This document shows, one piece after another, positions 30,825 through 44,998 of a stretch of 63,334 nt of DNA. The notes under the pieces were generated by a model, which saw only the letters and a program-made list of their open reading frames with translations, was not told where the DNA came from and ran no database searches. This DNA is from Deltaproteobacteria bacterium (lineage in GTDB: Bacteria; Desulfobacterota; Desulfobulbia; Desulfobulbales; SURF-16). Position 1 is the first letter of the stretch. Each line of letters starts with the position of its first letter. Where the stretch lies: positions 1 through 63,334 of the forward strand of contig DAOUUW010000002.1 in assembly GCA_030667965.1 (NCBI GenBank). The letters run 5' to 3'. Position numbers and translations under genes: made by a program.

Positions 30825-30870
30825 AAAATCTAATCACTTCTCTGAACTTAGCGCCCTATACGGACGGGCT

Positions 30871-31060
30871 TTAGACAGGATCAACAAGATAGACATCAAT
30901 GTCATTAACTTAAGCTATCAATTTATTTTTCCCCTCACCTAAATCCTCCCGGAGTCTCTCTCCGGTCGCTTACCTCCCAAAGGGGCGAGGATTTTAAAGG
31001 ATGGCTTAAGTTAATGACATTGAGATAGACATGATAAAAAAATCCAGTTAATCCTGTCTA
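30871..31060. repeat. 190-bp nested palindromic (MITE/REP-like) element
   Basis: Outer arms are TTAGACAGGATCAAC..AGATAGACATCAATGTCATTAACTTAAGC and GCTTAAGTTAATGACATTGAGATAGACATGAT..TTAATCCTGTCTAA. Inner palindromes are AAATCCTC/GAGGATTT and CCGGAG-tctct-CTCCGG. Confidence 0.75.
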
Positions 31061-31128
31061 AAAAAAAACAAAAAATGGGAATTCCTATGCTTTTGAATTA
31101 TGGAAAGGGTCTGCATCTGCAAAGGTGT

Positions 31129-31173
31129 TTGCAAAAATGTTAGTCTCCTTTAAAGCAGATTGCAGTTCCGCAA
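31129..31173 (+). promoter_or_regulatory. upstream activator sites for promoter P1 (two 14-mers)
   Basis: TTGCAAAAATGTTA lies at 31129-31142 and TTGCAGTTCCGCAA at 31160-31173. These are 125 and 94 nt upstream of the promoter GG. Confidence 0.65.
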
Positions 31174-31252
31174 TTGCATGAACGTCCTCAATCGGACACC
31201 AAAAGAAAGCAACCATCCGATATTTAAAGAAAAAAAGCACACACCATCTTTC

Positions 31253-31268
31253 TGGCATGCAAAATGCT
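31253..31268 (+). promoter_or_regulatory. sigma54 -24/-12 promoter P1 (upstream of EBP paralog 1)
   Basis: TGGCATGCAAAATGCT, with GG-N10-GC spacing exact. Confidence 0.7.
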
Positions 31269-31417
31269 AATTATTTAGGAAAAACCCGTTTTCTCCAGTG
31301 AACAGGTGTCAATATGAATCGCCCCGGCAGCTCTCTTTTATTTTTACCGCCCCGTAACCTTGTATGGCAGGATAATGTTTTCAAAATGAAGAATAATAAA
31401 ACCGGAAAGACATAACT

Positions 31418-32872
31418 GTGATCACGAAAAAAACAACACGCCAGGACAGACATGCCCGCCCCGTTTCTTTCGTAACTCCTGCAGATACAACTGCTGTACC
31501 AGACCAGCCAAAGGACGATTTTCGTCAAATCTCAACAGAAACTATCCTTGAAAGTATTTCCTACGGTGTTTTTACCATTGATATGGATTGGCGAATCACC
31601 TCTTTCAATAAAACCGCGGAAGAATTGACCGGCATAAACCGCCTGAACGCTATTGGACGCCGTTGTACTGATATTTTCCGATCCAACATGTGCGGCAAAG
31701 ACTGCGCCATCAAGCAAACATTGGCAACACATACCCCCATTATTGACCGCACCGTTTTTATTCGCAACACAGAGGAGAGACAGATCCCTGTTTCCGTTTC
31801 AACGTCTGTTCTGCATAACAACCAAAATGAAGTTATTGGTGCTGCTCAAATTTTTCGGAACCTGCAGTATTCTGTAAAACTGACAGGCAAAGAAACCAGA
31901 CAAATACACGTCAGTGAGTTGATAACCAGGAACAAGAACATGGGGAGAATTATCAGAATTCTTCCCCAGATTGCTGCCAGCGAATGCCCGGTCCTTATTG
32001 AAGGTGAAAACGGAACAGGCAAAGAATTGCTGGCACGTCTCATCCATACCCTCAGCTGCCGCAACAACAAACCATTTATTTCTATTGACTGCGGAGCTCT
32101 TGCACAGCACCTGCTCGAGACGGAATTATTCGGCAGCGACCCAGAGATACTTACCTGTTCCTGCAAGGTCAGGCCGTGCTGCTTTGAGCGAGCTGAAGGA
32201 AGCACTCTTCATCTTAACGGAATAAACACTCTCAGCCTGCCTGTCCAGGCGCGGCTCTTACAAATTTTACATGAAAAAACCTGCGAACCATACTGCAACG
32301 CAAGTCCTATGCGCACAGATATACGGATGATTAGCTCAAGCACCCGCCGTGTTTCTTCACTTATAAATGAAGGAACATTCCTGCAAAACCTGTACTACCG
32401 GATCAATATTATAAAACTTACTCTTCCGCCTTTACGTAACCGCAAAGAAGATCTCCCAATGCTGATTGATCATTTCATTTCCCAATGCAACCTGTCACAG
32501 AACAAATCCGTCAAGGGCGTCAGTCATGAAACCATGGATCTGTTAATGAGATATGATTTTCCAGACAACATCAGCGAGCTGAAAAACATAATAGAAAATG
32601 CTTTTTTACTGTGCTCCGAAGACCATATAATTCCCGCAAATATTTCAGTAAAACCAAGGAAGAGCACTTTTGTCAAGTCCCAGCCCCTGGCCATGGGAAT
32701 GGCTGTTCAGGCCGTTGAGGCCCAGGCCATCATCGCCGCACTGAAACGAAATAATTACAATAGAAAAGCCGCAGCGCATGAGCTTGGTATTCACAAAAGT
32801 ACGTTTTTCCGCAAAATCAAACATCTCGGCATATCATTGCCACAGGTAAACGACCGCTTCCAAAATTCATAA
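31418..32872 (+). CDS. PAS-domain sigma54 enhancer-binding-protein homolog, paralog 1 (degenerate AAA+ motifs), Fis-type HTH
   Basis: Walker A is LIEGENGTGKE. The AAA+ core is collinear with the NtrC family, and the C-terminal HTH is AAAHELGIHKSTFFRKIKHLGI. It has GAFTGA->EILTCS, Walker B LFLDE->LHLNG, FREDL->FLQNL and GNVRELEN->DNISELKN. GTG start. Confidence 0.85.
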   Translation: MITKKTTRQDRHARPVSFVTPADTTAVPDQPKDDFRQISTETILESISYGVFTIDMDWRITSFNKTAEELTGINRLNAIGRRCTDIFRSNMCGKDCAIKQTLATHTPIIDRTVFIRNTEERQIPVSVSTSVLHNNQNEVIGAAQIFRNLQYSVKLTGKETRQIHVSELITRNKNMGRIIRILPQIAASECPVLIEGENGTGKELLARLIHTLSCRNNKPFISIDCGALAQHLLETELFGSDPEILTCSCKVRPCCFERAEGSTLHLNGINTLSLPVQARLLQILHEKTCEPYCNASPMRTDIRMISSSTRRVSSLINEGTFLQNLYYRINIIKLTLPPLRNRKEDLPMLIDHFISQCNLSQNKSVKGVSHETMDLLMRYDFPDNISELKNIIENAFLLCSEDHIIPANISVKPRKSTFVKSQPLAMGMAVQAVEAQAIIAALKRNNYNRKAAAHELGIHKSTFFRKIKHLGISLPQVNDRFQNS

Positions 32873-32972
32873 GCCGGAACATTCAACTCGACAAAGCCGG
32901 TGCAGGAAAATAAAGCCAGAGACAGCATAAACACCTTTCATAGTTCTAACTCAAATCCCAAACAGCGATTCA

Positions 32973-33018
32973 TTGCATTCATGCAAACATGGTAATATAC
33001 TTTATTGCAGGTACGCAA
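32973..33018 (+). promoter_or_regulatory. upstream activator sites for promoter P2
   Basis: TTGCATTCATGCAA lies at 32973-32986 and TTGCAGGTACGCAA at 33005-33018. These are 122 and 90 nt upstream of the GG. Confidence 0.65.
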
Positions 33019-33093
33019 AGTCCATGAAGAGTCGCAATTATGCCCAAAGAATCAACATTTTGATATCACTACAAAAAAATCGTGTCGCATTTA

Positions 33094-33109
33094 TGGCACA
33101 CTACATGCA
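33094..33109 (+). promoter_or_regulatory. sigma54 -24/-12 promoter P2 (upstream of 4-TM protein 1)
   Basis: TGGCACACTACATGCA, with GG-N10-GC exact. Confidence 0.75.
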
Positions 33110-33268
33110 GATACCATAATTAACTTCTTTCTTGACCTCCCCCACCTAAGGTTATGTAAGAAGTTGCAAAAAAAATGAACAAAGGAACCCCCATGAATTA
33201 TTAATTTTATTTCTGGGAGTTACTTAATAACTAAAAACCTCTTTAAATGAAAAATCTGGAGGATTATC

Positions 33269-33682
33269 ATGAGCGAACTATTAATTCTATTGGCTATAAT
33301 TCCCCTGGCCTGTTACCAGCTGACCAAAAATTTCAAAACTAAGCATAGATGGGCGATGATTGGAGTATCCAGCGGCCTGGTTATTGCTCCAATCAGTTTT
33401 GGACTGCTTCAGTTTACCTACGTGCCTATTATTGGTAAAATCATGGGATTCATTGGTCTTATTTTCAACCTGACTCATGGTTCAGTGGGTTATTTCTGTC
33501 TGGTAGGCAGCGGAGTAATTGACCCGGGCGCCGTGCTTTCAGCCTCACAACTTGTTATGATTAACGTTGTGAATGCGGCCCTTTTTTCCTTCGCTTACGG
33601 AATGATCGGATACTCCGTTGACAAGAAGATCGAAGAGACAAGCCCTCAACCTCAACCGAGCTACAGCACTGTAAAACATTAA
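33269..33682 (+). CDS. small 4-TM membrane protein of unknown function, paralog 1
   Basis: 137 aa with four hydrophobic segments. A good RBS (GGAGGA) lies 6 nt upstream. It has very long identical stretches with ORF 36446..36853 (e.g. VIAPISFGLLQFTYVPIIGK.MGFIGLIFNLTHGSVGYFCLVGSG). Confidence 0.8.
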   Translation: MSELLILLAIIPLACYQLTKNFKTKHRWAMIGVSSGLVIAPISFGLLQFTYVPIIGKIMGFIGLIFNLTHGSVGYFCLVGSGVIDPGAVLSASQLVMINVVNAALFSFAYGMIGYSVDKKIEETSPQPQPSYSTVKH

Positions 33683-33706
33683 TCTTCCCAAATGAGAAAT
33701 AATTAC

Positions 33707-33743
33707 AAGCAAGTACCGTTGAGACGGTACTTGCTTTTTTTTT
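33707..33743 (+). terminator. Rho-independent terminator after 4-TM gene 1
   Basis: AAGCAAGTACCGT-TGAG-ACGGTACTTGCTT followed by a T run. Confidence 0.85.
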
Positions 33744-33819
33744 CTACGACAATGACCGCTAACATGCCCCTTGAGGGTGAACATCTGGAGCACTGCTGAA
33801 CAGTTACAGACCGAGTTTT

Positions 33820-34136
33820 TCATAACTTTTTTACACATGCTGAATAGTTACAAAATTTGGAGTGATCCCCAAAATATTCGTTCAATTTTTTCAAGGCAAC
33901 CTTTGGAGCTTTTCTTTTCCCTGCCGGTTTTTCCCTAACAAGATCGGCAATTCCACTAATGTTGCCATTCCATAGCAGTTCCCGAACCTGTGTGGAGAGC
34001 TTTCGGCTTTCCTTGTCTGACATTTCAGGGCATCAGAGATTAATTTTTTCACAATGCTGATATTCTGATTTGCGTGTGTATAGTCCAAAATCCGTTTTGT
34101 ATCACTACTTTTTTGTATTGCACCCCTTTTGAGCAA
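33820..34136 (-). pseudogene. frameshifted C-terminal remnant of a transposase (ISKra4/ISLre2-like, tentative)
   Basis: Two overlapping minus-strand ORFs read ..ILDYTHANQNISIVKKLISDALK.. and ..STQVRELLWNGNISGIADLV...ALKKLNEYFGDHSKFCNY. The pattern resembles the LDxxHAxEH...L.YL..N..RM.Y tail of that family. No intact transposase gene is present. Confidence 0.35.
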
Positions 34137-34162
34137 ATAGTATTTTTTAGAATTATCAATGC

Positions 34163-34208
34163 ATTACAGTGTTCACTGGAAGACTGGCTGAGTTTCAGTG
34201 GTAATCAC
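34163..34208. mobile_element. MITE family 1, solo right-end fragment
   Basis: ATTACAGTGTTCACTGGAAGACTGGCTGAGTTTCAGTGGTAATCAC aligns with the right ~45 bp of copies A and B. Confidence 0.55.
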
Positions 34209-34267
34209 AATAAAAAAAACTTCCTGCTGAGAATAAACTCAAAACGGCCCATAAAGCGGCTGCATAT

Positions 34268-34312
34268 TTGCAAAAATGTAAATGCAGCACCTGACGGATT
34301 GCAGTTCCGCAA
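34268..34312 (+). promoter_or_regulatory. upstream activator sites for promoter P3
   Basis: TTGCAAAAATGTAA lies at 34268-34281 and TTGCAGTTCCGCAA at 34299-34312, the latter identical to the P1 proximal site. These are 127 and 96 nt upstream of the GG. Confidence 0.65.
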
Positions 34313-34393
34313 TCATGCGCAGTTCCGTTTCTCCCTCTCCTGTGTCAACCAACTTATTGATATCTAAAGACAAAAAAAACAAGCGTAGATTTC

Positions 34394-34409
34394 TGGCACA
34401 CAAAATGCT
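34394..34409 (+). promoter_or_regulatory. sigma54 -24/-12 promoter P3 (upstream of EBP paralog 2)
   Basis: TGGCACACAAAATGCT, with GG-N10-GC exact. The -12 region is part of a 2 x 20-bp tandem duplication (34400-34439). Confidence 0.7.
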
Positions 34410-34685
34410 TTTTACACGAACAAAATGCTTTTTACACGAGTAAACTGCTGGGGTAAATATCCCAGAATAAAGGGATAATATCACGTTTGCTCGGCTAACT
34501 AATCTTTTTTTCCGTCATTGTAGGGCAGCACCTGAGAACAGCCTCTTGAATTTTATTAACCCCAAAAGACTGAAATTTAATGCAACTCAGGTTTTCCAAT
34601 AAGTTAACAAACAGACGACCTCAGCTGGAGATGACGAGACTGGTAATCCTCTCAAGAGAAACAAAGCCCGCAAAAGAGCTTATAC

Positions 34686-36155
34686 GTGAGTGCTAAAAAA
34701 AAAAGGTATTTGGAAAAGGGGAAATCATCCGCCACCTCTGTTGTGTCTGCCGACAACGTTGCAAACGTGAAACAAACATGTCAATTCCGGCAAATTTCAA
34801 CAGACTTAATTATGGAAAGCATTTCCTACGGAATTTTTTCAGTAGATTTGGATTGGAGAATCACGTCTTTCAACAGGACGGCGGAAAAAATCACCGGGAT
34901 TAGCCGCCTGAATGCAATTGGCCGACCCTGTTCAAGTATCTTTCTTTCAAATATGTGCGGAAAGGATTGTGCGGTGCAACAAACATTGTCAACAAAATCT
35001 GCCGTTCTCAACAGGACAGCTTTAATTACCGACTCTCAGGGACGACAAATCCCTATTAGTATTTCAACATCACTTTTGCGTAACTGTAATAACAAAATCA
35101 TAGGATCAGCACAAATTTTCCGAGATATCAGTCAGTCAGCATTTCCCCCAGGTATTGAATCCAGGCAGATACACTTAACAGAATTGGTGAGCAGAAACAA
35201 AATAATGGGGAAAATCATCAAAATACTTCCCCAGATTGCAGCCAGTGAAAGCACTGTCCTCATTGAAGGAGAAAATGGAACCGGCAAAGAAGCGCTGGCA
35301 CACCTTATCCACACCTTCAGCTGTCGCAACAATAAACCCTTTGTGAGCATAGACTGTGGAGCTCTGCCTCCGCACTTGCTTGCGACGGAGTTATACGGCA
35401 ATGAAGACGAGTTCCTCACCTGTTCCAGCAAAGCCAGACCGAGCTGTTTTGACAGGGCTGAAGGAAGCACTCTTTTTCTCGACGAAATAAATAAAATAAG
35501 CTTGCCCGTACAGGAACGACTTCTCAGGATTTTACAGAAGAAAACCTGTGAACCACGTGGCAGCACCAATTCCATGCATACTGATATCCGTGTCATTACT
35601 TCTAGTTCCGATCAACTTTCTTCACTCGTCAAGGAAGGGGCATTTCTGCAAAATCTTTATTATCAGGTCAATATTATCCAACTGCATCTTCCTTCCCTGC
35701 GGGACCGTAAAGAAGATCTTCCCCTGTTAATAGATCATTTTGTCTTCCGGTGGAACAGAATGAAAGGCAAAACCGTTAAAGGCATCAGTCATGAAACAAT
35801 GGATCTGCTCATGAATTATGACTTTCCCGGCAATATCAGTGAACTGAACAAAGTAATAGAACATGCCTTTGCCCTATGCGACGAAGACTACATTCAAACT
35901 TCGCATCTGCCGGAGAAAATAAAACAAGAGGCGCGGATAAAGTCCGATCCTGTGGGAATAGAAACCGCTGTCCAGGCCGTTGAGGCCCAGGCCATTATTG
36001 CGGCACTTAAACGAAATAATTTCAACAGAAAGGCGGCTGCTCTCGACCTGGGCATCCACAAAAGCACCTTTTTCCGCAAAATAAAACATCTGGGCATTGT
36101 TCTGCCGCAGGTTGACGGACGTTTCCGTCAACCTGTAAACGGCAACAACAAATAA
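34686..36155 (+). CDS. PAS-domain sigma54 enhancer-binding-protein homolog, paralog 2 (GAFTGA degenerate, Walker B intact), Fis-type HTH
   Basis: Walker A is LIEGENGTGKE and Walker B is TLFLDEIN. It has GAFTGA->EFLTCS, FLQNLYYQVNI and FPGNISELNK. The HTH is AAALDLGIHKSTFFRKIKHLGI. GTG start. Confidence 0.85.
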   Translation: MSAKKKRYLEKGKSSATSVVSADNVANVKQTCQFRQISTDLIMESISYGIFSVDLDWRITSFNRTAEKITGISRLNAIGRPCSSIFLSNMCGKDCAVQQTLSTKSAVLNRTALITDSQGRQIPISISTSLLRNCNNKIIGSAQIFRDISQSAFPPGIESRQIHLTELVSRNKIMGKIIKILPQIAASESTVLIEGENGTGKEALAHLIHTFSCRNNKPFVSIDCGALPPHLLATELYGNEDEFLTCSSKARPSCFDRAEGSTLFLDEINKISLPVQERLLRILQKKTCEPRGSTNSMHTDIRVITSSSDQLSSLVKEGAFLQNLYYQVNIIQLHLPSLRDRKEDLPLLIDHFVFRWNRMKGKTVKGISHETMDLLMNYDFPGNISELNKVIEHAFALCDEDYIQTSHLPEKIKQEARIKSDPVGIETAVQAVEAQAIIAALKRNNFNRKAAALDLGIHKSTFFRKIKHLGIVLPQVDGRFRQPVNGNNK

Positions 36156-36214
36156 GATTAACAAAAATAAGATTAACAACCGGATCGCGCAGCTGCAACG
36201 GATTGAAGAGGATA

Positions 36215-36258
36215 TTGCAAACATGCAATATCTAAATTGCATGTTTGCACCCACGCAA
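36215..36258 (+). promoter_or_regulatory. upstream activator sites for promoter P4
   Basis: TTGCAAACATGCAA lies at 36215-36228 and TTGCACCCACGCAA at 36245-36258. An overlapping TTGCATGTTTGCAC lies at 36237-36250. The first two are 122 and 92 nt upstream of the GG. Confidence 0.65.
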
Positions 36259-36335
36259 ACAAACAAAGAGTCGCAGCAGCACCATGTGACACCTAACGAC
36301 CTGACATAACTTAATAAAAAAATGAGTCGCTCTTA

Positions 36336-36351
36336 TGGCACACTCCATGCA
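36336..36351 (+). promoter_or_regulatory. sigma54 -24/-12 promoter P4 (upstream of 4-TM protein 2)
   Basis: TGGCACACTCCATGCA, with GG-N10-GC exact. Confidence 0.75.
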
Positions 36352-36445
36352 TTAATACTTTAGTAAAACACATCGACATCTGCAAGAAGGACAAAAGAGC
36401 AGGTCACCCGATAACTATTAACCTCTTTACAAGAGGAGGAATACC

Positions 36446-36853
36446 ATGAGCGAACTACTAATTCTTTTAGCGATCATACCTATAGCCTGTTATCAGTTAA
36501 CCAAAACTTTCTCTACTCGGCATCGGTGGATGTTATGCGGTGTTACCACCGGTCTGGTTATCGCCCCAATCAGTTTTGGCCTGCTTCAATTCACCTATGT
36601 ACCGATAATTGGTAAGGTCATGGGATTCATAGGTCTCATTTTCAACCTGACTCATGGTTCGGTGGGTTATTTCTGTCTGGTAGGAAGCGGAATACTTGAT
36701 CCGGGCGTCTTGATTTCAGCCTCACAACTTGTCATGATTAACGTTGTTAATGGGGTCCTTTTTTCCTTCGCTTACGGCATGATCGGATACTCCATTGACA
36801 GGAAGATCGAGGAGACAATCCCTACACGGAGCTACAGCGCTATTAAGCACTAA
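36446..36853 (+). CDS. small 4-TM membrane protein of unknown function, paralog 2
   Basis: 135 aa, collinear with ORF 33269..33682, with RBS GGAGGA. Confidence 0.8.
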   Translation: MSELLILLAIIPIACYQLTKTFSTRHRWMLCGVTTGLVIAPISFGLLQFTYVPIIGKVMGFIGLIFNLTHGSVGYFCLVGSGILDPGVLISASQLVMINVVNGVLFSFAYGMIGYSIDRKIEETIPTRSYSAIKH

Positions 36854-36880
36854 TCTTCCTAAAATGAACAAAAATTATAC

Positions 36881-36916
36881 AAGCAAGTACCATTGTCGAC
36901 GGTGCTTGCTTTTTTC
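36881..36916 (+). terminator. Rho-independent terminator after 4-TM gene 2 (homologous to 33707-33743)
   Basis: AAGCAAGTACC-ATTGTCGAC-GGTGCTTGCTT followed by a T run. Confidence 0.7.
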
Positions 36917-36949
36917 TGTGATCATAACAGCAACCAGACGGAAATTAAA

Positions 36950-37183
36950 ATGATCAGCACGACGAATACAAAGACAAAAAACGATTCAGCAACCTATAAC
37001 ACCACTTCCGGCAATGCCGATAATATAGCTGACAATGTTAACAACGTGACATTTATCATTTTGATATGTCTGGCCGGTATTATTGGCTTATGGGGTTTTT
37101 TAAGTCTCATAGCCGGACTGGTATACAGTGGAGGAATACTGGATCTTGCTTCGGAATGGTTAGGAGCCGTGATAGGTCTGTAA
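36950..37183 (+). CDS. 77-aa single-pass membrane protein, unknown function
   Basis: I prefer the internal ATG at 36950 to the track start at 36893, which lies inside the terminator hairpin. An Asn/Thr-rich polar N-terminus is followed by one TM (FIILICLAGIIGLWGFLSLIAGLV). A strong terminator follows. Confidence 0.45.
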   Translation: MISTTNTKTKNDSATYNTTSGNADNIADNVNNVTFIILICLAGIIGLWGFLSLIAGLVYSGGILDLASEWLGAVIGL

Positions 37184-37216
37184 TTGTGATATTTTGTTAA
37201 CATTCGGATGATCACC

Positions 37217-37250
37217 AGCAAATCCCCCCAACTCGTTGGGGGGATTTGCT
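37217..37250 (+). terminator. strong Rho-independent-type hairpin
   Basis: AGCAAATCCCCCCAA-CTCG-TTGGGGGGATTTGCT, a perfect 15-bp stem. Confidence 0.75.
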
Positions 37251-37406
37251 GTGTTCAACATAAACAAAAACGACAATGGCGTATCCACACGTAATGCAAT
37301 AATCATTACAGGGTCATGAATAAAATTTTTTCAATCCCCTCCAACTATCATCATAAAGCTATCATTAAGCAAATCTTGATACATCACTCTGTCTCTCCTT
37401 AAATCA

Positions 37407-37460
37407 ATGCAAACATGCAAACAGACTAAATTGTAGAGTTGCAGTCATGCAACTCTACAA
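37407..37460 (+). promoter_or_regulatory. upstream activator sites for promoter P5, proximal site embedded in a perfect 30-bp palindrome
   Basis: ATGCAAACATGCAA lies at 37407-37420 and TTGCAGTCATGCAA at 37439-37452. The latter sits inside TTGTAGAGTTGCA-GTCA-TGCAACTCTACAA (37431-37460). The sites are 125 and 93 nt upstream of the GG. Confidence 0.65.
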
Positions 37461-37530
37461 AAAGGCCATAGTCGCCAACGTAATAACATAACTATTTGAT
37501 ATAATAACAAAAAAAATTAAGAAATCCCCA

Positions 37531-37546
37531 TGGCACATAAGATGCA
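37531..37546 (+). promoter_or_regulatory. sigma54 -24/-12 promoter P5 (upstream of cytochrome operon)
   Basis: TGGCACATAAGATGCA, with GG-N10-GC exact. Confidence 0.75.
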
Positions 37547-37681: not shown

Positions 37682-38803
37682 ATGAAAAAAATGACCAGGT
37701 TAACAAAATGTTATGGCTTATTTTTTCTTTTTCTATGCTTCCTGTGGCCATCCGCAGGTTTGGCGATAGAAAACTCGGAATGTATGGATTGCCACAGCGA
37801 TGAGAGCCTCACCAAGGAATGCACGGACAACATATTGCAAACCAGCATTACAGAATCGCTTTATGTTGATGAAGACAAATTCAACCACTCGGTCCACAAT
37901 ATCAACGGCATAACCTGCATTGATTGCCATACCGACATTGAGGAGCTCAACTGGGACGAGGAACTGCCGCACAAGATGTACCTTGAACCGGTCGTCTGCA
38001 CCACATGCCATGAAGAGGAAGGAGAAGCCTACAAGAAAAGCGTTCATATGGAAATTCTCAAAAAGGGCATAACAATGCGCTGCTATGCCTGTCATGGCTA
38101 CCATTATGTTGAATATTCGGAAACGGCAACAGTTGCAGAACGGGGAAACAATTACTGTCTGAAATGCCATAACCCCTATCAGTACCACGAGTGGCTGCCG
38201 GCCAAAGAAGCACATTTTTCCATGGTTGAATGTGTTGTCTGCCATTCTCCAGAAGTACCGAATAAGATCCATCTGAACTTCATTGATCTGGTAAGTAACA
38301 AGCTTTACACCAGCAACGAAATCCTCGATGCACTGGGCGTTGATTACGACGAATTCATGCCTCTGCTTGACACAAACAAAGACGGCATCATTAATTCCTC
38401 TGAACTTGAGAATCTCGCTCTCATGCTCAGACTAAAAAATATTCATGCTGTTTTCCATGTGGAACTCCTGGCAGAGCTGCTACCAATTGCCCATGAGGTA
38501 AAAAGGGGTACGGCAGAACAAGACTGCGTGAAATGTCATTCAGCCAATTCCACTTATTTTGATTCCGTTTCCATTCTCATGACCAGGGATGACGGCACCA
38601 TCGACCGCTATGAAGTGGACAGGGCCGTACTGGAAAGCTACAACCTGAGTCACTTTTACCTGATGTCGGGGACACGGGTGAAACTGCTGGACAAAATAGG
38701 CTTTCTCCTGCTGGCAGGTGGCGCCTGTGGCGCGCTTGGACATTTGACCATCAGAATTTTTACGATCCCGATACGTAGAAAAAGAAAAACTGACAAAAAA
38801 TGA
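37682..38803 (+). CDS. membrane-anchored periplasmic heptaheme c-type cytochrome with an internal EF-hand-like loop
   Basis: It has a signal peptide and seven CxxCH motifs (CMDCH, CIDCH, CTTCH, CYACH, CLKCH, CVVCH, CVKCH). The C-terminal TM is IGFLLLAGGACGALGHLTIRIF. DTNKDGIINSSE matches DxNxDGxIxxxE. Confidence 0.9.
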   Translation: MKKMTRLTKCYGLFFLFLCFLWPSAGLAIENSECMDCHSDESLTKECTDNILQTSITESLYVDEDKFNHSVHNINGITCIDCHTDIEELNWDEELPHKMYLEPVVCTTCHEEEGEAYKKSVHMEILKKGITMRCYACHGYHYVEYSETATVAERGNNYCLKCHNPYQYHEWLPAKEAHFSMVECVVCHSPEVPNKIHLNFIDLVSNKLYTSNEILDALGVDYDEFMPLLDTNKDGIINSSELENLALMLRLKNIHAVFHVELLAELLPIAHEVKRGTAEQDCVKCHSANSTYFDSVSILMTRDDGTIDRYEVDRAVLESYNLSHFYLMSGTRVKLLDKIGFLLLAGGACGALGHLTIRIFTIPIRRKRKTDKK

Positions 38804-38878: not shown

Positions 38879-39496
38879 ATGAATAACGAAAAACGGTTAT
38901 ACGTCCATCCTGGGCCGGTTCGTGTCTGGCACTGGGTAAATGCCTTAGGTTTTGTCATTCTCATTCTCACCGGCTTTCAGATTCGATTTGCGGATATATT
39001 GAATATAATGCCCCTGCAGGATGCCATCACCATACATAACTATGTCGGCTTTACACTCATCGGCAATTACTTTATCTGGCTTATTTACTATCTGAGCACC
39101 GGTAAGATTAAAATATATATCCTGGACGTCCGCACCCTTGTTCCCATGGCTATTAAACAGATGCTGTATTACGGATATGGTATTTTCAGGGGAGATGAAA
39201 ACCCTCACCATATGACCCCGGATAACAAATTTAATGCCCTGCAGCAGCAGGCCTATGCAGCTATCATGCTGATATTTCTGCCGGCCCAGATGCTCTCCGG
39301 TGTCTTTTTATGGAAGGTAAAAGGCTATTCAGACTATATTCACCTGCTCGGAGGAATCAAAACTATAGATACCATCCATGTAATCCTCTTCTTCTTTTTC
39401 GGTTCTTTTGTCATGATCCATTGCTATCTGGCAACATTGGGCCACACACCCCTTGCCCATTTTAAAGCGATGTTCACCGGTTACGAAGACCATTAA
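38879..39496 (+). CDS. dihaem b-type cytochrome, HydC/FdnI/PhsC family (PF01292-like)
   Basis: The N-terminus VHPGPVRVWHWVNALGFVILILTGFQIRF is typical of the family. It has four to five TM segments and four conserved-position His residues. Confidence 0.8.
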   Translation: MNNEKRLYVHPGPVRVWHWVNALGFVILILTGFQIRFADILNIMPLQDAITIHNYVGFTLIGNYFIWLIYYLSTGKIKIYILDVRTLVPMAIKQMLYYGYGIFRGDENPHHMTPDNKFNALQQQAYAAIMLIFLPAQMLSGVFLWKVKGYSDYIHLLGGIKTIDTIHVILFFFFGSFVMIHCYLATLGHTPLAHFKAMFTGYEDH

Positions 39497-39605: not shown

Positions 39606-41258
39606 TTATTTAAACTGGTTCTTCATTTTAACGATGGGCAGGATGATCGTGAAAAGGGCCCCACCCAATGAGCTGTTGCTTGCCTCAATATCTGCGCCAA
39701 GCTTCTGGATAATGCTGTAAGAGATTGCAAGACCAAGCCCTGTACCTTTGCCGGGTTCCTTGGTGGTGAAAAACGGATCAAAAATTTTATCTATTATTTC
39801 GGATTTAATACCAGGTCCGTTATCTTCAAATTTGAGCACAATTTGTTCAACAGTGCTTCTGGTTGTAATCTTTACAACTCCGCCATCTCCTGCGGCATCC
39901 ATGCCGTTGTTTGTCAAATTAAGAATGACCTGCAGCAACTTTGAGGCGTCGGTCATTGTGGTTGGCAGATCTTTTTGCAGATCTTTTTCAATGCTAATTC
40001 TGCTGTGTTTAGCGTCGGTTTGGAGAAAAGAAATTGCCTCTTCCACCACGTCATTCATATTCACGGCTTCCTTTTCAGATTGCATTTTTCGGGAAAATCC
40101 CAACAATCTGTGGGTAACGCTACTTGCCCTTTTCACGTAGTGGCGTATCTTTTTCAGGGACTCCCTGTATTCTTCAGCATTTTTAACATTCAAAGAATCC
40201 TCTTCACTCATCAGATCTTCAATCCAGCCGACCTGGTCGGTAATCAGCTGCAGAGGATTATTCACTTCATGGGCAACGCCACCTGCCAGTCTTCCCAGGG
40301 AAGCCATTTTATCAACTTGCAGCATATGGCTGTCCAGTGCTGCCTTCTCACGATCAGCTGCCTCCATGCCTTTCATCATCCAACGCATCATTAAATTCGA
40401 TATGAGAACAATGATCCATGAAGCAATAAAAATTGAAACCAGCACCATATTGCGGCCACTGGAGAACATGTTAATATCGCTGGTTGATTTGACTTTAACA
40501 ACAAGAAGCCATCCAACGTCTCTAATCCAGCTTGTCACATATAGATGACCTTTAATTTGTTTTACTTCGGTCCCCTCATGAGAATAAACAAGTTCCTTTT
40601 CTTCCTCAGCCAGTGCTACTTGCCCAAATCGGCTGGGCGTCTGAAATTTGCCCTTGTAATTGACAATAAAGGCATCACCGGCGTCTCCTATCTGGGCGCT
40701 TCGTACGAGACCGTTTAAAATCTCAGAATTTATTGTGCTGCGTAACACCCATTTTTTCAAAGGACCGGCAACTGCCACCACGATATGGGGCAATCCACGA
40801 TAACCGGATGAAATATCGCTTATATGACTGCCACTAATCATTACTTCTTGAAACCACTCGGTATCTGCATAATTTTTGCCAACAAGTTTTTGCTCATAAG
40901 GACCGACATATGCTACAAGATCTCCTGAAGCATTAAGCACGCCCAGATCAACAATACCCACATCTCCCAGCGACATGAATACCTTCTCCAGGTCATCCTG
41001 ACTGGTTAAATCATTACAATTGCAAAGTTGAATCAGCTGTTCCAGTAACCCTTTTTGTCCCTTAAGAAAAAAAGAAATGAGCTCCTTTCTGTTTTCCACC
41101 GTTCTTTTCAATCCGACGGCAGTGTTTTCCACATAAGATTTTTCATAAAAAGTTGAGGAGCTCCAACTGATCAGGTACAGAGGGATAATTGACACAAGTA
41201 TCAATATGATTGAAAAATTCCTCCACAACCTCTTATAATAAGTAATGTTCTTCTGCAT
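39606..41258 (-). CDS. Cache-domain sensor histidine kinase, paralog HK1
   Basis: Two TM segments flank a periplasmic Cache-like domain. The H-box is [10 protein letters not shown]. HATPase N and G boxes are [15 protein letters not shown] and GKGTGLGL. Confidence 0.9.
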
Positions 41259-41301
41259 TGTATTGGAAAATGTACCTTATGATTCTGCCTGTAATGTAAG
41301 T

Positions 41302-41404
41302 TTGATGGTCTCGTAAAAAGTCTAAAATTCGGATTTTTTGCGTCGTAAGTCGTTGAGTTAGTGTCACCAATTTTTGAGATTTCGACTTTTTACGAGACCA
41401 TCAA
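41302..41404. repeat. palindromic repeat family 2 (TTGATGGTCTCGTAAAAAGT arms), copy 1
   Basis: TTGATGGTCTCGTAAAAAGT lies at 41302-41321 and ACTTTTTACGAGACCATCAA at 41385-41404. The same arms occur at 44999-45069. Confidence 0.8.
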
Positions 41405-41605
41405 GTTTGTTTATTTATGAAAATTTCCGTTCGAGATCCAGGCCTGCGGAAAAAATAACCGAAGGTATATACTTGATATTCCGAGGATTATTTTTTCCGC
41501 ATTACGCAGAAATCGGGCAAAAAGACCATAAACAAAAAAACCTCCGCACACACCTCGATCCTTTGACTCAAACGGAGAGAGGTGTGTGATTGTAAGAACG
41601 AACAA

Positions 41606-42103
41606 TCAGTTTTTGCTAACTCTGAAAGATTCCTGGTCAATGTCGTGCTTTTTTATTTTGTCATATAGAGATTTCCGGGAAATCCCCTGGGAATTATACA
41701 CTGCAGTGATTCTGCCTTTATGAATTTGCAGCGCCGCCTGGATATGCTCCTTTTCCGCTTTTTCAACCACATGTTTTAACAGCACTTTACGTTCAACCGA
41801 ACTTGTGACAGCATCTGCATCATCGTCAACATTAAAAGAGGAATTGCCGAAAATACAAAGTCGGCGGACATGATTTTTTAATTCCCTTACATTACCGGGC
41901 CACACTTGCTCCAGCATATGGTCTATTGTGACCTTATCGAAGGGTTTCACCTCCCGCTTGCTGTCACGGCAATACTCTGCTCTGAAATATTCAGCCAAAA
42001 GCAGAATGTCTGATTTTCGTGAACGTAAAGGCGGCACCTCTATCGGCAGCACATTCAAACGATAAAATAAATCCTCCCGAAAATGCCCTTTCTCAATCGT
42101 CAA
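41606..42103 (-). pseudogene. C-terminal fragment of a canonical sigma54 enhancer-binding protein, 5'-truncated
   Basis: It begins inside the AAA+ domain at GHFREDLFYRLNV, then WPGNVRELKN and a Fis-type HTH. There is no Walker A/B or N-terminal domain. The upstream sequence is an IS256 remnant. Confidence 0.75.
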
Positions 42104-42226
42104 TGTTAGTGTATCATTCTTTCTGCAATTTGGATTTGGCCAGGAGGAGGTGAATCCAAAAAAGGTTGAAAAAGGTGGGTCAATTCACATCCTCTAAATT
42201 TTTTCCACGCCAGGAAAAGGAGGAGC

Positions 42227-42590
42227 TTGATAATGACCCACCAACCGGAACCTACCATAATTGATAAAGTAATTGAAACCATTATTGCCAACGGCATTGA
42301 CGGATTAGGGGAGGCTTTCACTTTACTGTTCAACGAAGCCATGAAAATTGAGCGATCCAAGGTATTACGCGCTGCCCCATGGGAACGAAACGAGGAGCGA
42401 CTGGGACACGCCAACGGCTATAAACCAAAATCCATTAATAGTCGTCTTGGTAAACTGCATTTACAAATTCCACAAGTACGTGGAGATATTGAATTCTATC
42501 CATCATCTTTGGAAAAAGGATTGCGTAGTGAACGTGCGCTGAAGAAAGTGGCCATGGCCGAGATGTACATACAAGGCGGCTCAACCGACA
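42227..42590 (+). pseudogene. IS256-family (Mutator-type) transposase, N-terminal fragment only
   Basis: The typical IS256 N-terminal third is present: RLGHANGYKPKSINSRLGKLHLQIPQVRG..FYPSSLEKGLRSERAL...MAEMYIQG. Similarity is lost after about residue 120 and no DDE domain is present. Confidence 0.75.
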
Positions 42591-42915
42591 AGGCTCCATC
42601 GGAGTGTTATTCTTGCCTGAGCTACATAGCTCAGGGGCAACATCACCGAAGGCTTGTCATTGACGGTCGTAGTCGAACCAAGTTACTTCGGATGTGCCAA
42701 TAAGATGAATTAGTTTTCAACTTTTACAGAATAAATGTTTCTTTATCAAAATTTTTTCATATTAATCTTATGGCAGTCAGCAACGATCGATTAATTGCCG
42801 GCCATAAAACCATGATTGATTCATGGGGTATTAATGATGTCACACCTACTTCGATATCTATAAAGCCTTTTATAAACCGTATGAAAACTCTGCTTTCATA
42901 AAATCAAGCACTGCA

Positions 42916-44562
42916 ATGAACAATAAATATTACGCAAGCCTCCGCAAAAGGTTCTTAATTCTAATAATTGGCGTGTCCCTGACGCCCCTTGTGGGCATCT
43001 CCTGGAGCACAGCCTACTACTTCCATAAGCATGCAATAAAACATGTAACACATGACCTTGAGCGAATGGTCTCTACAAGACAAGAAATTATCACACGTTC
43101 TCTGGAAAACCAGAAAGAACAGTTGGCGAGACTGTTAAGACTGTATTCGTCCGAAGACCTGAAAAACCAGAGCAATCTTGAAAGAATCTTTGTTGCCCTT
43201 TCATCCGACTCCATAATTGACCTGAGCGTGATAGACGGCTCCGGAAACCATGTAGCATACGTCGGACCGTACAGTGAAAAACTCTTAAGCCAAAACTACA
43301 AAGAGACTCAATGGTTTCAGGATGTAATGCATAAAGGCAGCTATATAAGTGATATTTTTAGCGGTTTTCGAGAGGTGCCTCATTTCGTTGTCGCCGTGGT
43401 GAACCCTCTTAGAAATTTGATTTTACGGACTACGATAAATTCCGATTATTACAATTCACTGTTGCGTGGAGCACAAATCTCCGTAAATGGGGATGCATTC
43501 ATTGTCAACCGGCTGGGAGAGCTTCAGACACAAAGAAGGTTCGGTGAAAAAACCATATCTGAGGAAGAAGCGAGATTGCTCACCTTTCATGAAGGGACGC
43601 AAGTCAATTCGATAAAAAATAACCTCTATGTAACAAGCTGGATGAAAGACGGGGAATGGCTTCTGCTGGTCAAGGTTAAAAGAAATTCTGTGCTCAAAAT
43701 GTTCCTTGAAGCACGCAACCTTGATATTGTCCTGCTGATAATCGCTTCGCTGCTGATTATAACCGTTTCAATTATGATTGTGCGTCAAATGGTTAATAAA
43801 ATTGCAAAAGCTGATTACAAAAGAGCCTCGCTGGATAGTCAGATGTTACAGGTTGAAAAGATGGCGTCACTTGGCAGGTTAGCTGCAGGCGTGGCCCATG
43901 AAGTCAACAACCCCCTGCAGCTTATAACAGACCAGGCAGGTTGGATTAATGAACTCATGGACGATGAAGATCCGAAAAAAATTAAAAACATCGTCGAATA
44001 TCAAGCGTCTGTTAAAAAGATACTAAACAATGTGAAAAGAGCCAGCGCCGTCACCCATAAACTGCTTGGATTTTCAAGAAAAATGGAGACGGAAAAAGAA
44101 AACGTTGACATAAATATTCTTGTTCGAGAGACGGTATCCTTTGTTGAAGACGAAGCAAACAAGGAAGAAATCTCCATAAATCTCGATCTGCAGGATGAAA
44201 TACCGGCCACAATGACTGATGCAGCCCAGATTCAGCAGGTATTTTTCAATCTTATTAATAACGGCATGGACGCTGTGGAAAAAGGCGGTTCCATTGATAT
44301 TTCCACCACAAGTGACAACAAAAATATCATAATTTATTTTGCCGATTCCGGGCCTGGAATTGCCGATGCAATCTTAGACAAAATTTTTGATCCTTTCTTT
44401 ACAACTAAAGCTCCGGGTAAAGGAACCGGCCTAGGGTTATCCATCTGCTACAGCATCATTAAAAAATTGGGGGGGGAAATTAATGCAAAAAACAGAGAAA
44501 AGTACGGAAGCGTTTTTACGGTCATACTGCCTATTGTTAATTTAACTAACAGGGTTTCATAG
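42916..44562 (+). CDS. Cache-domain sensor histidine kinase, paralog HK2
   Basis: It is collinear with HK1 and shares long near-identical blocks ([30 protein letters not shown]). The HATPase motifs are complete. Confidence 0.9.
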
Positions 44563-44985: not shown

Positions 44986-44998
44986 ACAGAAACTAGAG

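Follow-up and report, generated by a model that had tools for sequence, protein, structure and literature searches.

A probable sigma-54 regulon with paired upstream dyads, two disabled EBP homologs and a cytochrome c/b module in a Desulfobulbales contig

Genes, promoters and upstream elements of the locus

The sequence analyzed, hereafter called the window, is a stretch of 63,334 bp. As an earlier preliminary description of this DNA had noted, it carries two paralogous PAS-AAA+-HTH_8 genes, two paralogous 4-TM genes, and genes for a multihaem cytochrome c and a cytochrome b561:

31418..32872, +: EBP1, with a PAS domain (C-X8-C-X3-C), a degenerate AAA+ domain and HTH_8
33269..33682, +: 4-TM protein A, 137 aa; terminator at 33707-33745
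34686..36155, +: EBP2, with a PAS domain (C-X8-C-X3-C), a degenerate AAA+ domain and HTH_8
36446..36853, +: 4-TM protein B, 135 aa, 81% identical to A; terminator-like hairpin at 36878-36915
36950..37183, +: small membrane protein, 77 aa; hairpin at 37216-37251
37682..38803, +: heptahaem c-type cytochrome, with seven CXXCH, a signal or anchor at the N-terminus and a TM helix at the C-terminus
38879..39496, +: cytochrome b561 / Ni_hydr_CYTB family membrane protein

4-TM protein A could not be assigned to any family in Pfam or NCBIfam. Homologues of the small membrane protein were found 3' of the 4-TM gene in several related Desulfobulbales loci (L002, L005, L019, L020, L030, L031, L033 and L034). 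The best NCBIfam match of the cytochrome b561 was PhsC-like and fell below the cutoff. Based upon domain content, the cytochrome pair resembles, and may correspond to, a split version of the CbcL-type quinol:periplasm module.

The promoter pattern TGGCAY-N6-TGCW (GG-N10-GC) was scanned on both strands of the whole window. Exactly five matches were obtained, all on the + strand and at the positions previously reported for them. Dinucleotide shuffles gave an expectation of 0.76 +/- 0.79 matches with a maximum of three, and 0 of 100 shuffles reached five. Sigma-70-like sites in the region did not exceed the chance level. The promoters (P1 to P5) and the elements upstream of them are as follows:

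31129..31142, +: P1 distal weak dyad TTGCAAAAATGTTA, two mismatches, right half
31160..31173, +: P1 proximal dyad TTGCAGTTCCGCAA, asymmetric CGCAA half, centre about -112 from the predicted start
31230-31236: P1 A7 tract
31253..31268, +: P1 sigma-54 -24/-12 promoter TGGCATGCAAAATGCT, predicted start about 31279
32973..32986, +: P2 distal dyad TTGCATTCATGCAA, centre about -140
33005..33018, +: P2 proximal dyad TTGCAGGTACGCAA, centre about -108
33053..33065, +: P2 IHF-like site CAACATTTTGATA (YAA-N4-TTGATW)
33073-33079: P2 A7 tract
33094..33109, +: P2 sigma-54 promoter TGGCACACTACATGCA, predicted start about 33120
34268..34281, +: P3 distal weak dyad TTGCAAAAATGTAA, one mismatch, overlapping CTGCATATTTGCAA at 34260
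34299..34312, +: P3 proximal dyad TTGCAGTTCCGCAA, identical to P1 proximal
34350..34362, +: P3 IHF-like site CAACTTATTGATA
34372-34379: P3 A8 tract
34394..34409, +: P3 sigma-54 promoter TGGCACACAAAATGCT, predicted start about 34420
36215..36228, +: P4 distal dyad TTGCAAACATGCAA
36245..36258, +: P4 proximal dyad TTGCACCCACGCAA, overlapping TTGCATGTTTGCAC at 36237
36316-36322: P4 A7 tract
36336..36351, +: P4 sigma-54 promoter TGGCACACTCCATGCA, predicted start about 36362
37407..37420, +: P5 distal dyad ATGCAAACATGCAA, one mismatch
37439..37452, +: P5 proximal dyad TTGCAGTCATGCAA, within a 30-bp palindrome at 37431-37460
37489..37501, +: P5 IHF-like site TAACTATTTGATA
37509-37516: P5 A8 tract
37531..37546, +: P5 sigma-54 promoter TGGCACATAAGATGCA, predicted start about 37557

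The TTGCA-N4-YGCAA dyads are 14 bp long, and the two of a pair are set 30-33 bp apart. Counted from the T of TGG to the dyad start, they lie at 121 and 89 (P2), at 121 and 91 with an overlapping third site at 36237 (P4), at 124 and 92 (P5), at 93 with a weak site at 124 (P1), and at 95 with a weak site at 126 (P3). The preliminary description had assigned two dyads to every promoter; this holds strictly for P2 and P4 and nearly for P5, but P1 and P3 have only a weak variant as their distal site. The identity of TTGCAGTTCCGCAA at P1 and P3 was borne out. There are 10 exact matches to TTGC-N6-GCAA in the window, seven of them within 31160-37452, and allowing at most one mismatch gave 34 matches in the window against 15.9 +/- 5.2 expected. 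Relative to P2, whose dyads are centred about 108 and 140 bp upstream of the predicted start, those of the other four promoters lie up to about 6 bp farther upstream. Such spacing is that expected of two regulator dimers bound on one DNA face and nucleating an AAA+ hexamer. Between dyads and promoter there is an IHF-like site (YAA-N4-TTGATW) at a fixed -41 to -44, about 42 bp upstream of the promoter, together with an A-tract. The exact IHF-like site is present at P2, P3 and P5, and in 15 of 57 promoter-dyad composites, with near-matches visible in many others.

P1/P3 and P2/P4 stem from a cassette of regulator and 4-TM gene that was duplicated in tandem long ago, so that the five sites in the window amount to roughly three independent promoters. 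At the DNA level the copies share 71% and 81% identity in their coding regions; between the genes, almost nothing except the promoter and dyads has escaped divergence, and BLAST aligns only 37-51 nt around the promoters. Independent support for the promoters is provided by other genomes.

Conservation in related Desulfobulbales loci

Of 43 related Desulfobulbales loci, about 35 have the composite of dyad and promoter in front of the same genes (4-TM, heptahaem cytochrome c with cytochrome b561, and regulator). A search of about 0.76 Mb, comprising 40 related loci and the window, returned 59 composites of a promoter with a perfect dyad, 58 of which are on the module strand in front of 4-TM, cytochrome or regulator genes. 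Composites were placed likewise in three further loci. Loci of the GAFTEA clade have a weaker GGAAT-N6-TGCA promoter with a dyad about 91 bp upstream of the GG. Most of the 40 loci have the 4-TM gene together with those for the heptahaem cytochrome and cytochrome b561. With synteny and cis-elements shared by roughly 40 Desulfobulbales loci, the earlier view of a non-random architecture tying an unknown 4-TM family to a cytochrome c/b module is well founded. Because the same composite recurs before the same genes in these loci, the region is very probably a true sigma-54 regulon, enhancer-dependent and built along classical lines, with promoters served by upstream activator sequences.

Two regulators lacking the sigma-54 contact loop

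The EBP homologs had been proposed to activate their own genes, and their sequences speak against this. Neither has the GAFTGA loop or the sensor-II arginine; of the arginines in the FRxDLYYRL segment, the first is missing from both proteins and the second from EBP2. In EBP1, GAFTGA is replaced by EILTCS, the Walker B DE by NG, and GNxREL by DNISEL. In EBP2, whose Walker A and B are intact, the corresponding replacements are EFLTCS for GAFTGA, FLQNLYYQV for FRxDLYYRL and GNISEL for GNxREL; an alignment with ZraR (1OJL) places FLQNLYYQV against FRQDLYYRL and GNISEL against GNIREL. Walker A is kept in both proteins, both match PF00158 (E = 1e-43 to 1e-47), and purifying selection acts on the AAA+ domain. 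Insofar as dN/dS between EBP1 and EBP2 is low (0.14 in the AAA+ domain and 0.055 in the HTH, at dS > 1.3), the pair are not pseudogenes. The E[IF]LTCS region is 68% identical between them, with dN/dS of 0.18. Judged from sequence, the two proteins may retain nucleotide-dependent activity, or even some non-canonical contact with sigma-54. Activation of sigma-54 by GAFTGA-less proteins of this kind would not be expected, and the atypical GAFTGA-less EBPs described previously do not use sigma-54 (PMC6158489).

EBP1 and EBP2 belong to a clade of such disabled regulators. In an alignment of seven members (the window pair and five database proteins) the L1-loop sequences are unrelated, with GNISEL in six of the seven and GNITEL in the other. 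With L001 added for the tree, the eight-member clade was monophyletic in 198 of 200 bootstraps, even when the AAA+ core was excluded. The whole clade has lost GAFTGA and the sensor-II arginine, and most members have also lost residues of the arginine-finger region; strong purifying selection has maintained its Cys-triad PAS domain and HTH. This PAS domain is of the type found in OrpR, where it binds an Fe-S cluster. All 120 best homologues carry C-X8-C-X3-C, and in OrpR residues C52/C61/C65 are needed for redox sensing via a [4Fe-4S] cluster (PMC8359166). The two window proteins are more likely redox-sensing modulators than activators.

Over deep divergence the order is always the same: a sigma-54 promoter with dyads, then the gene for the disabled regulator and, directly 3' of it, the 4-TM gene. 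The weak distal variant TTGCA-N4-TGKAA was found at seven of eight regulator promoters (P1, P3 and five further loci). The asymmetric proximal dyad TTGCA-N4-CGCAA accounts for 20 of 28 sites in disabled-regulator loci versus 1 of 25 in loci without such a regulator, counts that take no account of common descent and may go back to a single evolutionary event or a few. In L003, L019-21, L026, L027 and L034, the same gene position is occupied by PAS-HTH proteins with no AAA+ domain.

Activation and modulation of the regulon

A canonical GAFTGA EBP is encoded beside cytochrome b in L001-3, L019-21, L026, L027, L041 and L043. Related loci whose contigs reach far enough likewise encode one, and the only disabled-regulator loci without it are the window, L004 and the short L034. 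Loci with the canonical EBP and no disabled regulator bear the same dyads. On the 63-kb contig of the window a canonical GAFTGA EBP of matching kind was not found, and the sole intact EBP there (61869-63284) has an HTH of a different kind; the activation step is therefore assumed here. In the related genomes, the canonical GAFTGA EBP whose gene adjoins the cytochromes is the most likely activator. The activator of this genome would have to lie off the contig, and either a GAFTGA EBP of the DKTTLWRKMKKY type or another EBP able to bind TTGCA-N4-TGCAA would be expected. We regard as reasonably probable a classical sigma-54 regulon in which EBP1 and EBP2 are redox-sensing, dyad-binding modulators and the true activator is encoded elsewhere.

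At the loci of intact sister proteins with an identical recognition helix (L033 and L037) the dyad is instead TCGCA-N4-TGCGA, so the disabled proteins may prefer a site other than TTGCA-N4-YGCAA. Both also fit the definition of atypical EBPs, and no extra motif specific to disabled-regulator loci was found in a search for one. These observations would suit TyrR/VpsR/NtrX-like proteins that act at sigma-70 promoters elsewhere, or at other sites, and are mere cargo of a regulon whose dyads are used only by the canonical EBP. We consider this unlikely, given the strict positional linkage to the 4-TM gene and its dyad promoter, the co-occurrence of the asymmetric proximal dyad with these regulators, and the chance-level sigma-70-like sites.

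It is quite improbable that EBP1 and EBP2 activate all five promoters, their own included, through an L1 loop in which E[IF]LTCS replaces GAFTGA. The position of their genes behind dyad promoters and directly upstream of the 4-TM genes, the strong PF00158 match, the intact Walker A, the constrained AAA+ domain, the retention of E[IF]LTCS between the paralogues and the lack of another suitable EBP on the contig are all compatible with it. The residues lost from both proteins, the loss of the Walker B DE from EBP1 and the precedent of characterized GAFTGA-less EBPs argue against it, as do the canonical EBP in related loci with such a protein (except L004 and the short L034) and the AAA+-less proteins in the same gene position. 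The L1 segment, moreover, has no conserved sequence at all clade-wide, whereas a functional sigma-54 contact ought to be conserved.

The copied promoter pairs might suggest that tandem duplication and chance matches in AT-rich intergenic sequence produced the whole pattern, which would then have no regulatory meaning. This is effectively refuted by the conservation of the composite at the same genes in about 40 genomes; the divergence of the surrounding intergenic DNA and the shuffles also speak against it.

The modulator reading would have EBP1 and EBP2 bind the dyads, especially the promoter-proximal asymmetric TTGCA-N4-CGCAA, as their co-occurrence suggests; once bound, they would modulate, and probably antagonize, hexamer assembly by the true activator. 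The cis-architecture follows the classical UAS-IHF-promoter layout and is itself known. What can fairly be called new is the gene set and the role of the disabled regulators, for neither of which a paper was found in the literature, and to these the earlier description of an undescribed system should be confined. The output of the regulon is a membrane electron-transfer set of heptahaem cytochrome c, cytochrome b561, small TM protein and 4-TM protein. In the canonical GAFTGA EBP there are between one and three PAS domains of the OrpR type, bearing the C-X8-C-X3-C triad, and since this triad holds a redox-sensitive [4Fe-4S] cluster in OrpR, expression of the regulon is probably tied to the cellular redox state. 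As the EBP genes are transcribed from the sigma-54 promoters with the weakest dyads, EBP1 and EBP2 made at the regulon's own promoters would close a redox-gated feedback loop.

Sigma-54 promoters, dyads and genes of the locus

The pattern TGGCAY-N6-TGCW, which has the exact GG-N10-GC spacing, was found five times on the two strands of the 63,334-bp window (P1 to P5). Dinucleotide-preserving shuffles gave 0.76 +/- 0.79 expected matches, and five were reached in none of 100 shuffles. Five -24/-12 promoters had been proposed in the preliminary description, and they were borne out by their exact positions, by the shuffles and by their conservation across genomes. The base preceding TGC is A in all five, not T as in the TGGCAC-N5-TTGCW-like reference. 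The pairs P1/P3 and P2/P4 reflect an old tandem duplication of a cassette consisting of a regulator and a four-transmembrane (4-TM) protein gene, so the window holds about three independent promoters rather than five. Transcription starts were predicted by taking the C of GC as -12.

Sigma-54 promoters of the window, all on the plus strand, with dyad distances in bp from the T of TGG to the dyad start
P1: 31253, +, predicted start about 31279; distal dyad 124 (TTGCAAAAATGTTA, two mismatches), proximal dyad 93
P2: 33094, +, predicted start about 33120; distal dyad 121, proximal dyad 89; exact IHF-like site at 33053
P3: 34394, +, predicted start about 34420; distal dyad 126 (TTGCAAAAATGTAA, one mismatch), proximal dyad 95; exact IHF-like site at 34350
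P4: 36336, +, predicted start about 36362; distal dyad 121, proximal dyad 91
P5: 37531, +, predicted start about 37557; distal dyad 124 (one mismatch), proximal dyad 92; exact IHF-like site at 37489

The window holds 10 exact TTGC-N6-GCAA sequences, of which seven lie at 31160-37452, and 34 matches were found with one mismatch allowed, against 15.9 expected. The same pair of TTGCA-N4-YGCAA dyads had been described upstream of every promoter; two per promoter at fixed distances were indeed present, but the distal ones at P1, P3 and P5 carry one or two mismatches. Distal and proximal dyads start 30-33 bp apart, about three helical turns. Their centres at P2 lie at about -108 and -140 from the predicted start, the positions of the NtrC sites of E. 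coli glnAp2; those at P1, P3, P4 and P5 are shifted upstream by as much as about 6 bp. An IHF-like sequence, YAA-N4-TTGATW, lies between the -24 element and the proximal dyad; it starts 41-44 bp upstream of TGG and has two mismatches at each of P1 and P4. An A7-8 tract is present 20-23 bp upstream of TGG at all five promoters. A relaxed scan of the window for further regulon members returned the same five sites and one weak match at 13349, which is probably a chance occurrence. An Rfam scan of the whole window showed no known RNA element.

Other repeated sequences were observed around these promoters. The proximal dyad of P5 sits within a perfect 13+13 bp palindrome (TTGTAGAGTTGCAGTCATGCAACTCTACAA, 37431-37460), far longer than the usual 14-bp core. 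A perfect 20-bp tandem duplication (ACAAAATGCTTTTTACACGA, twice; 34400-34439) begins inside the P3 promoter, so that a second copy of the -12 TGCT element lies a short way downstream of the real one. Both 4-TM promoters have the pentamer GTCGC 10 bp upstream of TGG (33083-33087 and 36325-36329), and further copies occur 60-66 bp upstream of TGG at P2, P4 and P5 (33031-33035, 36270-36274 and 37471-37475). Among related Desulfobulbales loci (L numbers), the copy at -10 from TGG is shared by the 4-TM promoters of L003, L004 and L043; it is absent from L001, L002, L041 and the clade with short regulators, and a near match, GTCGT, has the same position in L006, which is without a disabled regulator. 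Nested inverted repeats lie between uvrC and P1 (30870-31062), with arms at 30896-30919 and 31000-31023 (24 nt, 96% complementary) and at 30870-30890 and 31042-31062; this element is MITE-like or a large hairpin, and had no Rfam match.

Genes and gene fragments of the locus
31418-32872: EBP1, with PAS, AAA+ and HTH_8 domains
33269-33682: 4-TM A, 81% identical to 4-TM B
34686-36155: EBP2, with PAS, AAA+ and HTH_8 domains
36446-36853: 4-TM B, 81% identical to 4-TM A
36950-37183: membrane protein of 77 aa
37682-38803: cytochrome c, seven CXXCH motifs; signal or anchor at the N-terminus, TM helix at the C-terminus
38879-39496: cytochrome b561/Ni_hydr_CYTB protein (PF01292, E = 9e-26; best NCBIfam match PhsC-like, below cutoff)
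39606-41258, minus strand: dCache histidine kinase
41606-42118, minus strand: C-terminal EBP fragment
42227-42703, plus strand: ORF, fragment of an IS256/Mutator-family transposase
42916-44562: dCache histidine kinase, paralogous
44599-44985: stand-alone receiver protein
45257-46987: dCache histidine kinase, paralogous
46968-47360: stand-alone receiver protein

Both 4-TM genes and the small TM gene are followed by rho-independent terminator hairpins. For the contig's UvrC protein no database match exceeds 72% identity, or about 71% at full length, and its best named matches are in Desulfobulbaceae, Desulfurivibrio and Thermodesulfobacteriota MAGs, which places the window in an uncultured Desulfobulbales lineage. 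Kinases similar to those in the stretch downstream of the cytochromes (39606-47360) also flank the module in L001-L004, L008, L028, L029 and L032. The EBP fragment within this stretch comprises the AAA lid and HTH_8 C-terminus of a response-regulator type protein and breaks off beside the transposase fragment. It has the look of a regulator gene that an insertion destroyed, and it is flanked on both sides by dCache histidine kinase genes, which are paralogues of each other.

When one genome per species was scanned, 40 related loci were obtained, among them those of the cultured Desulfogranum mediterraneum (DSM 13871), D. marinum, Desulfobulbus rhabdoformis, Hydrosulfovibrio ferrireducens and strain B35. 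The 4-TM gene adjoins orthologues of the heptahaem cytochrome and cytochrome b561 in most of them, which supports the earlier proposal that genes of unknown function are linked here to a respiratory module. These loci and the window (about 0.76 Mb, both strands) were searched for composites, defined as a sigma-54 match with a perfect dyad 55-175 bp upstream. Fifty-nine were found, and all but one (58/59) lay on the module strand upstream of a 4-TM gene, the cytochrome operon or a regulator gene. Three further loci, fetched through regulator homologues (L041-L043), showed the same pattern. It is mainly because of this phylogenetic footprint that the promoters and dyads are taken to be functional.

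The disabled regulators and their PAS sensor

The two EBP homologs of the window match PF00158 (E = 2e-43 and 2e-47) and HTH_8 (E = 4e-10 and 3e-8). They belong to a group, type A, that has the HTH sequence LGIHKSTFFRKIKxLGIxLPxxDGRF and is encoded directly upstream of the 4-TM gene.

Forms of the type A regulator
Intact, GAFTGA present: L033, L037
Full length without GAFTGA: window (twice), L001, L002, L004, L041, L043
Reduced to PAS-HTH, 189-244 aa, no AAA+: L003, L019-21, L026, L027, L034

When EBP2 was compared with ZraR (1OJL), GAFTGA was replaced by EFLTCS, FRQDLYYRL by FLQNLYYQV and GNIREL by GNISEL. EBP1 has EILTCS at the GAFTGA position; its second Arg is retained, and the Asp-Glu of Walker B is gone (LHLNGI, with DE replaced by NG). 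FRxDL has become FLQNL in both proteins and GNxREL has become GNISEL in EBP2 and DNISEL in EBP1; Walker A is kept in both and Walker B in EBP2 only. The preliminary description had suggested apparent autoregulation by the two EBP homologs. A real regulon with a link to respiration stands, but autoregulation by functional EBPs is not supported, because both EBP1 and EBP2 have lost GAFTGA and catalytic arginines. Judged by sequence, they are atypical EBPs as defined in PMC6158489.

An alignment was made of seven GAFTGA-less proteins, namely the window pair and the database homologues P0077, P0087, P0100, P0102 and P0125. The sequences of their L1 loops show no relationship among themselves; all seven carry the sensor-II substitution, as GNISEL in six proteins and GNITEL in the seventh, and Walker A is largely retained. 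With the AAA+ core excluded, these seven and the L001 protein formed a clade in 198 of 200 bootstraps, with the intact L033-type proteins as its sister, so the motor was disabled once. A small tree of PAS and HTH sequences had suggested an independent loss of GAFTGA in the window lineage, and this was overturned by the larger bootstrapped analysis with its single clade. The genes of the intact sister proteins P0068 and P0071 are at contig ends. EBP1 and EBP2 share 63% identity, their synonymous sites are saturated, and dN/dS was 0.14 for the AAA+, 0.13 for the PAS and 0.055 for the HTH domain. Since its loss of the motor, the disabled clade has diversified without decay.

The motif C-X8-C-X3-C was found in the PAS domain of all 120 best EBP2 homologues, and the cysteine triad reads RRCTDIFRSNMCGKDC in EBP1 and RPCSSIFLSNMCGKDC in EBP2. 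The residue two after the first Cys, a conserved Asp/Glu and candidate fourth ligand, is D in EBP1, S in EBP2 and D or E in intact relatives. In OrpR (DVU2106) of Desulfovibrio vulgaris, C52, C61 and C65 are needed for redox sensing via a [4Fe-4S] cluster, the oxidised cluster inhibits the AAA+ domain, and the protein works with IHF (PMC8359166). The window proteins have the same PAS, AAA+ and HTH_8 order and the same cysteine spacing, and both systems have the regulator co-localised with its sigma-54 promoters as well as IHF, represented in the window by IHF-like sites. Unlike the window regulators, OrpR has a functional AAA+ domain, recognizes GGGCGYRTTTTGCGCCC and targets the orp operons (PMC8359166), whereas the window has TTGCA-N4-YGCAA dyads, cytochrome and 4-TM genes, EBPs without GAFTGA and catalytic arginines, and an EBP2 without the acidic residue two after the first Cys. 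What is shared is the sensor type and not orthology. By analogy with OrpR, redox is the probable signal, which would be received through an Fe-S PAS domain of this type.

A candidate activator and a proposed role for the disabled regulators

A second group of regulators, type B, consists of canonical EBPs with ELFGYKKGAFTGA, where some clades have GAFTDA or GAFTEA. Each has between one and three PAS domains, and the HTH ends in DKTTLWRKMKKY; the gene usually adjoins that of cytochrome b, and L041 16096-17628 encodes one such canonical EBP. It stands beside the cytochromes in all loci with a disabled type A regulator except the window, L004 and the short L034 contig, and loci with type B only have the same TTGCA-N4-TGCAA dyads. 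Together, these observations point to type B, or a close equivalent, as the activator. No type B gene was found on the window contig when it was searched by tblastn with the GAFTGA EBPs of L001, L003 and L010; the matches were EBP1, EBP2, an unrelated PAS-EBP (61869-63284) and the fragment at 41606-42118, which is about 30% identical and of a different family. Several long-contig loci (L004, L005, L007) also have no type B gene within 10 kb, which makes an off-locus activator plausible.

In a sub-clade with GAFTEA EBPs the promoter is weaker, GGAAT-N6-TGCA, and the dyad lies about 91 bp upstream of GG. The GAFTEA loci mostly have this non-canonical -24 element (GGAAT, not GGCAC), about 70-75 bp upstream of the 4-TM start. 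The GGAAT group comprises L014, L016, L017, L018, L022, L024 and L040, of which L040 has GAFTGA, and in the clade of L028, L029, L032 and L038 canonical promoters go with GAFTDA. In the GAFTEA/GGAAT loci the strength of the promoter may co-vary with the activator loop.

The proximal dyads differ between type A loci and loci with type B only. The asymmetric proximal form TTGCA-N4-CGCAA, or its reverse complement, was found at 20 of 28 sites in type A loci versus 1 of 25 in loci with type B only (Fisher p = 5e-7, ignoring shared ancestry), and distal dyads are symmetric in both. A His or an Asp at the start of the recognition helix (HKSTFFRKIK versus DKTTLWRKMK) may explain this half-site preference. 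The weakest pair of sites belongs to the promoters of the regulator genes, with an asymmetric proximal dyad and a degenerate distal one. The weak distal variant, TTGCA-N4-TGKAA, is not noise; it recurs at seven of the eight regulator promoters (P1, P3 and those of five further loci). The position of the type A gene and its own sigma-54 promoter with dyads are conserved throughout the clade. From this conservation, the variant dyad and the weakness of the regulators' own promoter, we infer that the disabled regulators act at these enhancers. In the preferred reading, they would occupy the proximal dyad and limit, or otherwise tune, assembly of the activator hexamer, and could thereby serve as a redox-gated feedback element.

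Binding to the dyads calls for caution, since the intact sisters have the same recognition helix and are found with a different dyad, GTCGCA-N4-TGCGAC (core TCGCA-N4-TGCGA). It occurs in L033 (6840-6990, 9670-9720 and 10825-10845) and L037 (4290-4360), where type A is intact with GAFTGA and no type B gene is nearby, and twice a sigma-54-like promoter follows it, again at a distance of about 93-95 bp. Mapping of this core onto the asymmetric CGCAA half-site was tried and dropped, because the altered positions differ. A separate operator for the disabled regulators was sought by k-mer contrasts between loci with and without them, and nothing consistent was found.

Two other roles are conceivable for the disabled regulators, namely as co-activators or at other, sigma-70 promoters. 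The atypical GAFTGA-less EBPs TyrR, PhhR, HupR, HsfA, NtrX and VpsR do not use sigma-54 (PMC6158489), and this comparison set, which also includes Caulobacter NtrC (PMC6158489; bioRxiv 10.1101/2023.06.06.543975), resembles the window EBPs in that GAFTGA is changed or missing and Walker B or catalytic residues are altered. Those proteins act at sigma-70 promoters or by repression in regulons outside sigma-54 control, whereas the genes of the window EBPs have their own sigma-54 promoters within a sigma-54 regulon. The related loci differ from them further in having a canonical paralogue alongside and in the shrinkage of same-position proteins to PAS-HTH. Sigma-70-like sites in the region were at chance level (25 versus 19.4 +/- 4.5 expected). 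The modulator reading in its complete form is possible but rather doubtful: the EBP-derived clade, with an Fe-S-type PAS and HTH kept and the AAA+ dead or deleted, would be dedicated modulators at the variant proximal dyad, competing or co-assembling with an OrpR-like activator and expressed from the regulon's weakest promoters, and the regulon would encode an unrecognised, Desulfobulbales-specific membrane electron-transfer complex of four components (4-TM protein, small TM protein, heptahaem cytochrome c and cytochrome b561).

In eight loci without a disabled regulator there is a conserved ORF of about 120 aa, helix-turn-helix-like by eye (MSGKPIN..KTQKTAAAMAGISERSGRRIEKGE..). It is placed between the cytochrome gene and a composite promoter whose dyads lie about 100 and 67 bp upstream of TGG. 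No homologue was found in the window. It may be an alternative small regulator of the same regulon.

ORF of about 120 aa in related loci
L007: 11460-11903
L008: 6173-6571
L010: 10995-11363
L011: 7013-7381
L015: 3531-3857
L023: 11239-11601
L035: 10936-11379
L039: 8837-9181

Known systems and the membrane module

In its cis-architecture the window resembles NtrC-type enhancers such as those of glnAp2 and nifH, with GG-N10-GC, two dimer sites and IHF or an intrinsic bend between. It differs from them in the TTGCA-N4-YGCAA dyad, in a Cys-triad PAS sensor in place of a receiver domain and in promoter-adjacent regulator genes whose products are predicted to be incapable of acting as activators themselves. 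Morett and Bork reportedly proposed that Fis derived from NtrC's C-terminal DNA-binding domain. The PAS-HTH forms of the related loci are likewise an HTH_8 module freed from the AAA+ motor; unlike Fis, they retain the PAS sensor, and their gene is still in the original regulon and position.

The domain content of the module resembles that of Geobacter CbcL-type proteins, which have a periplasmic multihaem c domain and a b cytochrome of the HydC/FdnI/PhsC type (PF01292). CbcL is a single fused polypeptide, whereas the c and b parts of the module are separate, with seven CXXCH motifs and a C-terminal anchor in the former and with the 4-TM and small TM proteins alongside. A CbcL homologue is among the differentially transcribed cytochromes of Desulfurivibrio alkaliphilus (Nature 2025, PMC12545173), and it could not be linked to the module. 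The 4-TM proteins gave no Pfam or NCBIfam match. Their AlphaFold model had a pLDDT of 74.6, and Foldseek found nothing below E = 1 for it in the PDB. Homologues numbered 53 in a set of 5.8 billion proteins, and all those with a source name were hypothetical proteins from Desulfobulbales-type MAGs. A profile search of 1.84 billion representatives gave only 142 clusters (50% identity), nearly all of stand-alone proteins of 125-140 aa, and the ten distant or longer family members inspected have no Pfam domain.

The literature search found no paper describing the module or these regulators. The cis-architecture is classical, the sensor is OrpR-like and GAFTGA-less EBPs are a known class. What appears to be new is an evolutionarily stable GAFTGA-less clade whose genes lie within a sigma-54 regulon, beside a canonical paralogue, and are expressed from that regulon, together with the apparent series from disabled AAA+ to domain deletion in same-position proteins, which echoes the proposed origin of Fis. 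The gene set also appears to be new, especially the 4-TM family, which has no detectable relatives of known function.

Sigma-54 promoters are usually seen as on/off devices under one ATPase activator, and this locus suggests a second layer of control, in which a disabled activator paralogue that keeps its sensor and DNA-binding domain, and is made by the same regulon, probably edits enhancer occupancy. If the modulator reading is true, such promoters would gain a feedback loop of their own and a second redox input. The analysis also yields a defined enhancer sequence, and the tie to the cytochrome c/b module gives the uncharacterised 4-TM family a conserved set of partners. The module genes occur in the Desulfobulbales, an order of sulfur-cycling and electroactive bacteria, and the cultured carriers offer experimental entry points.
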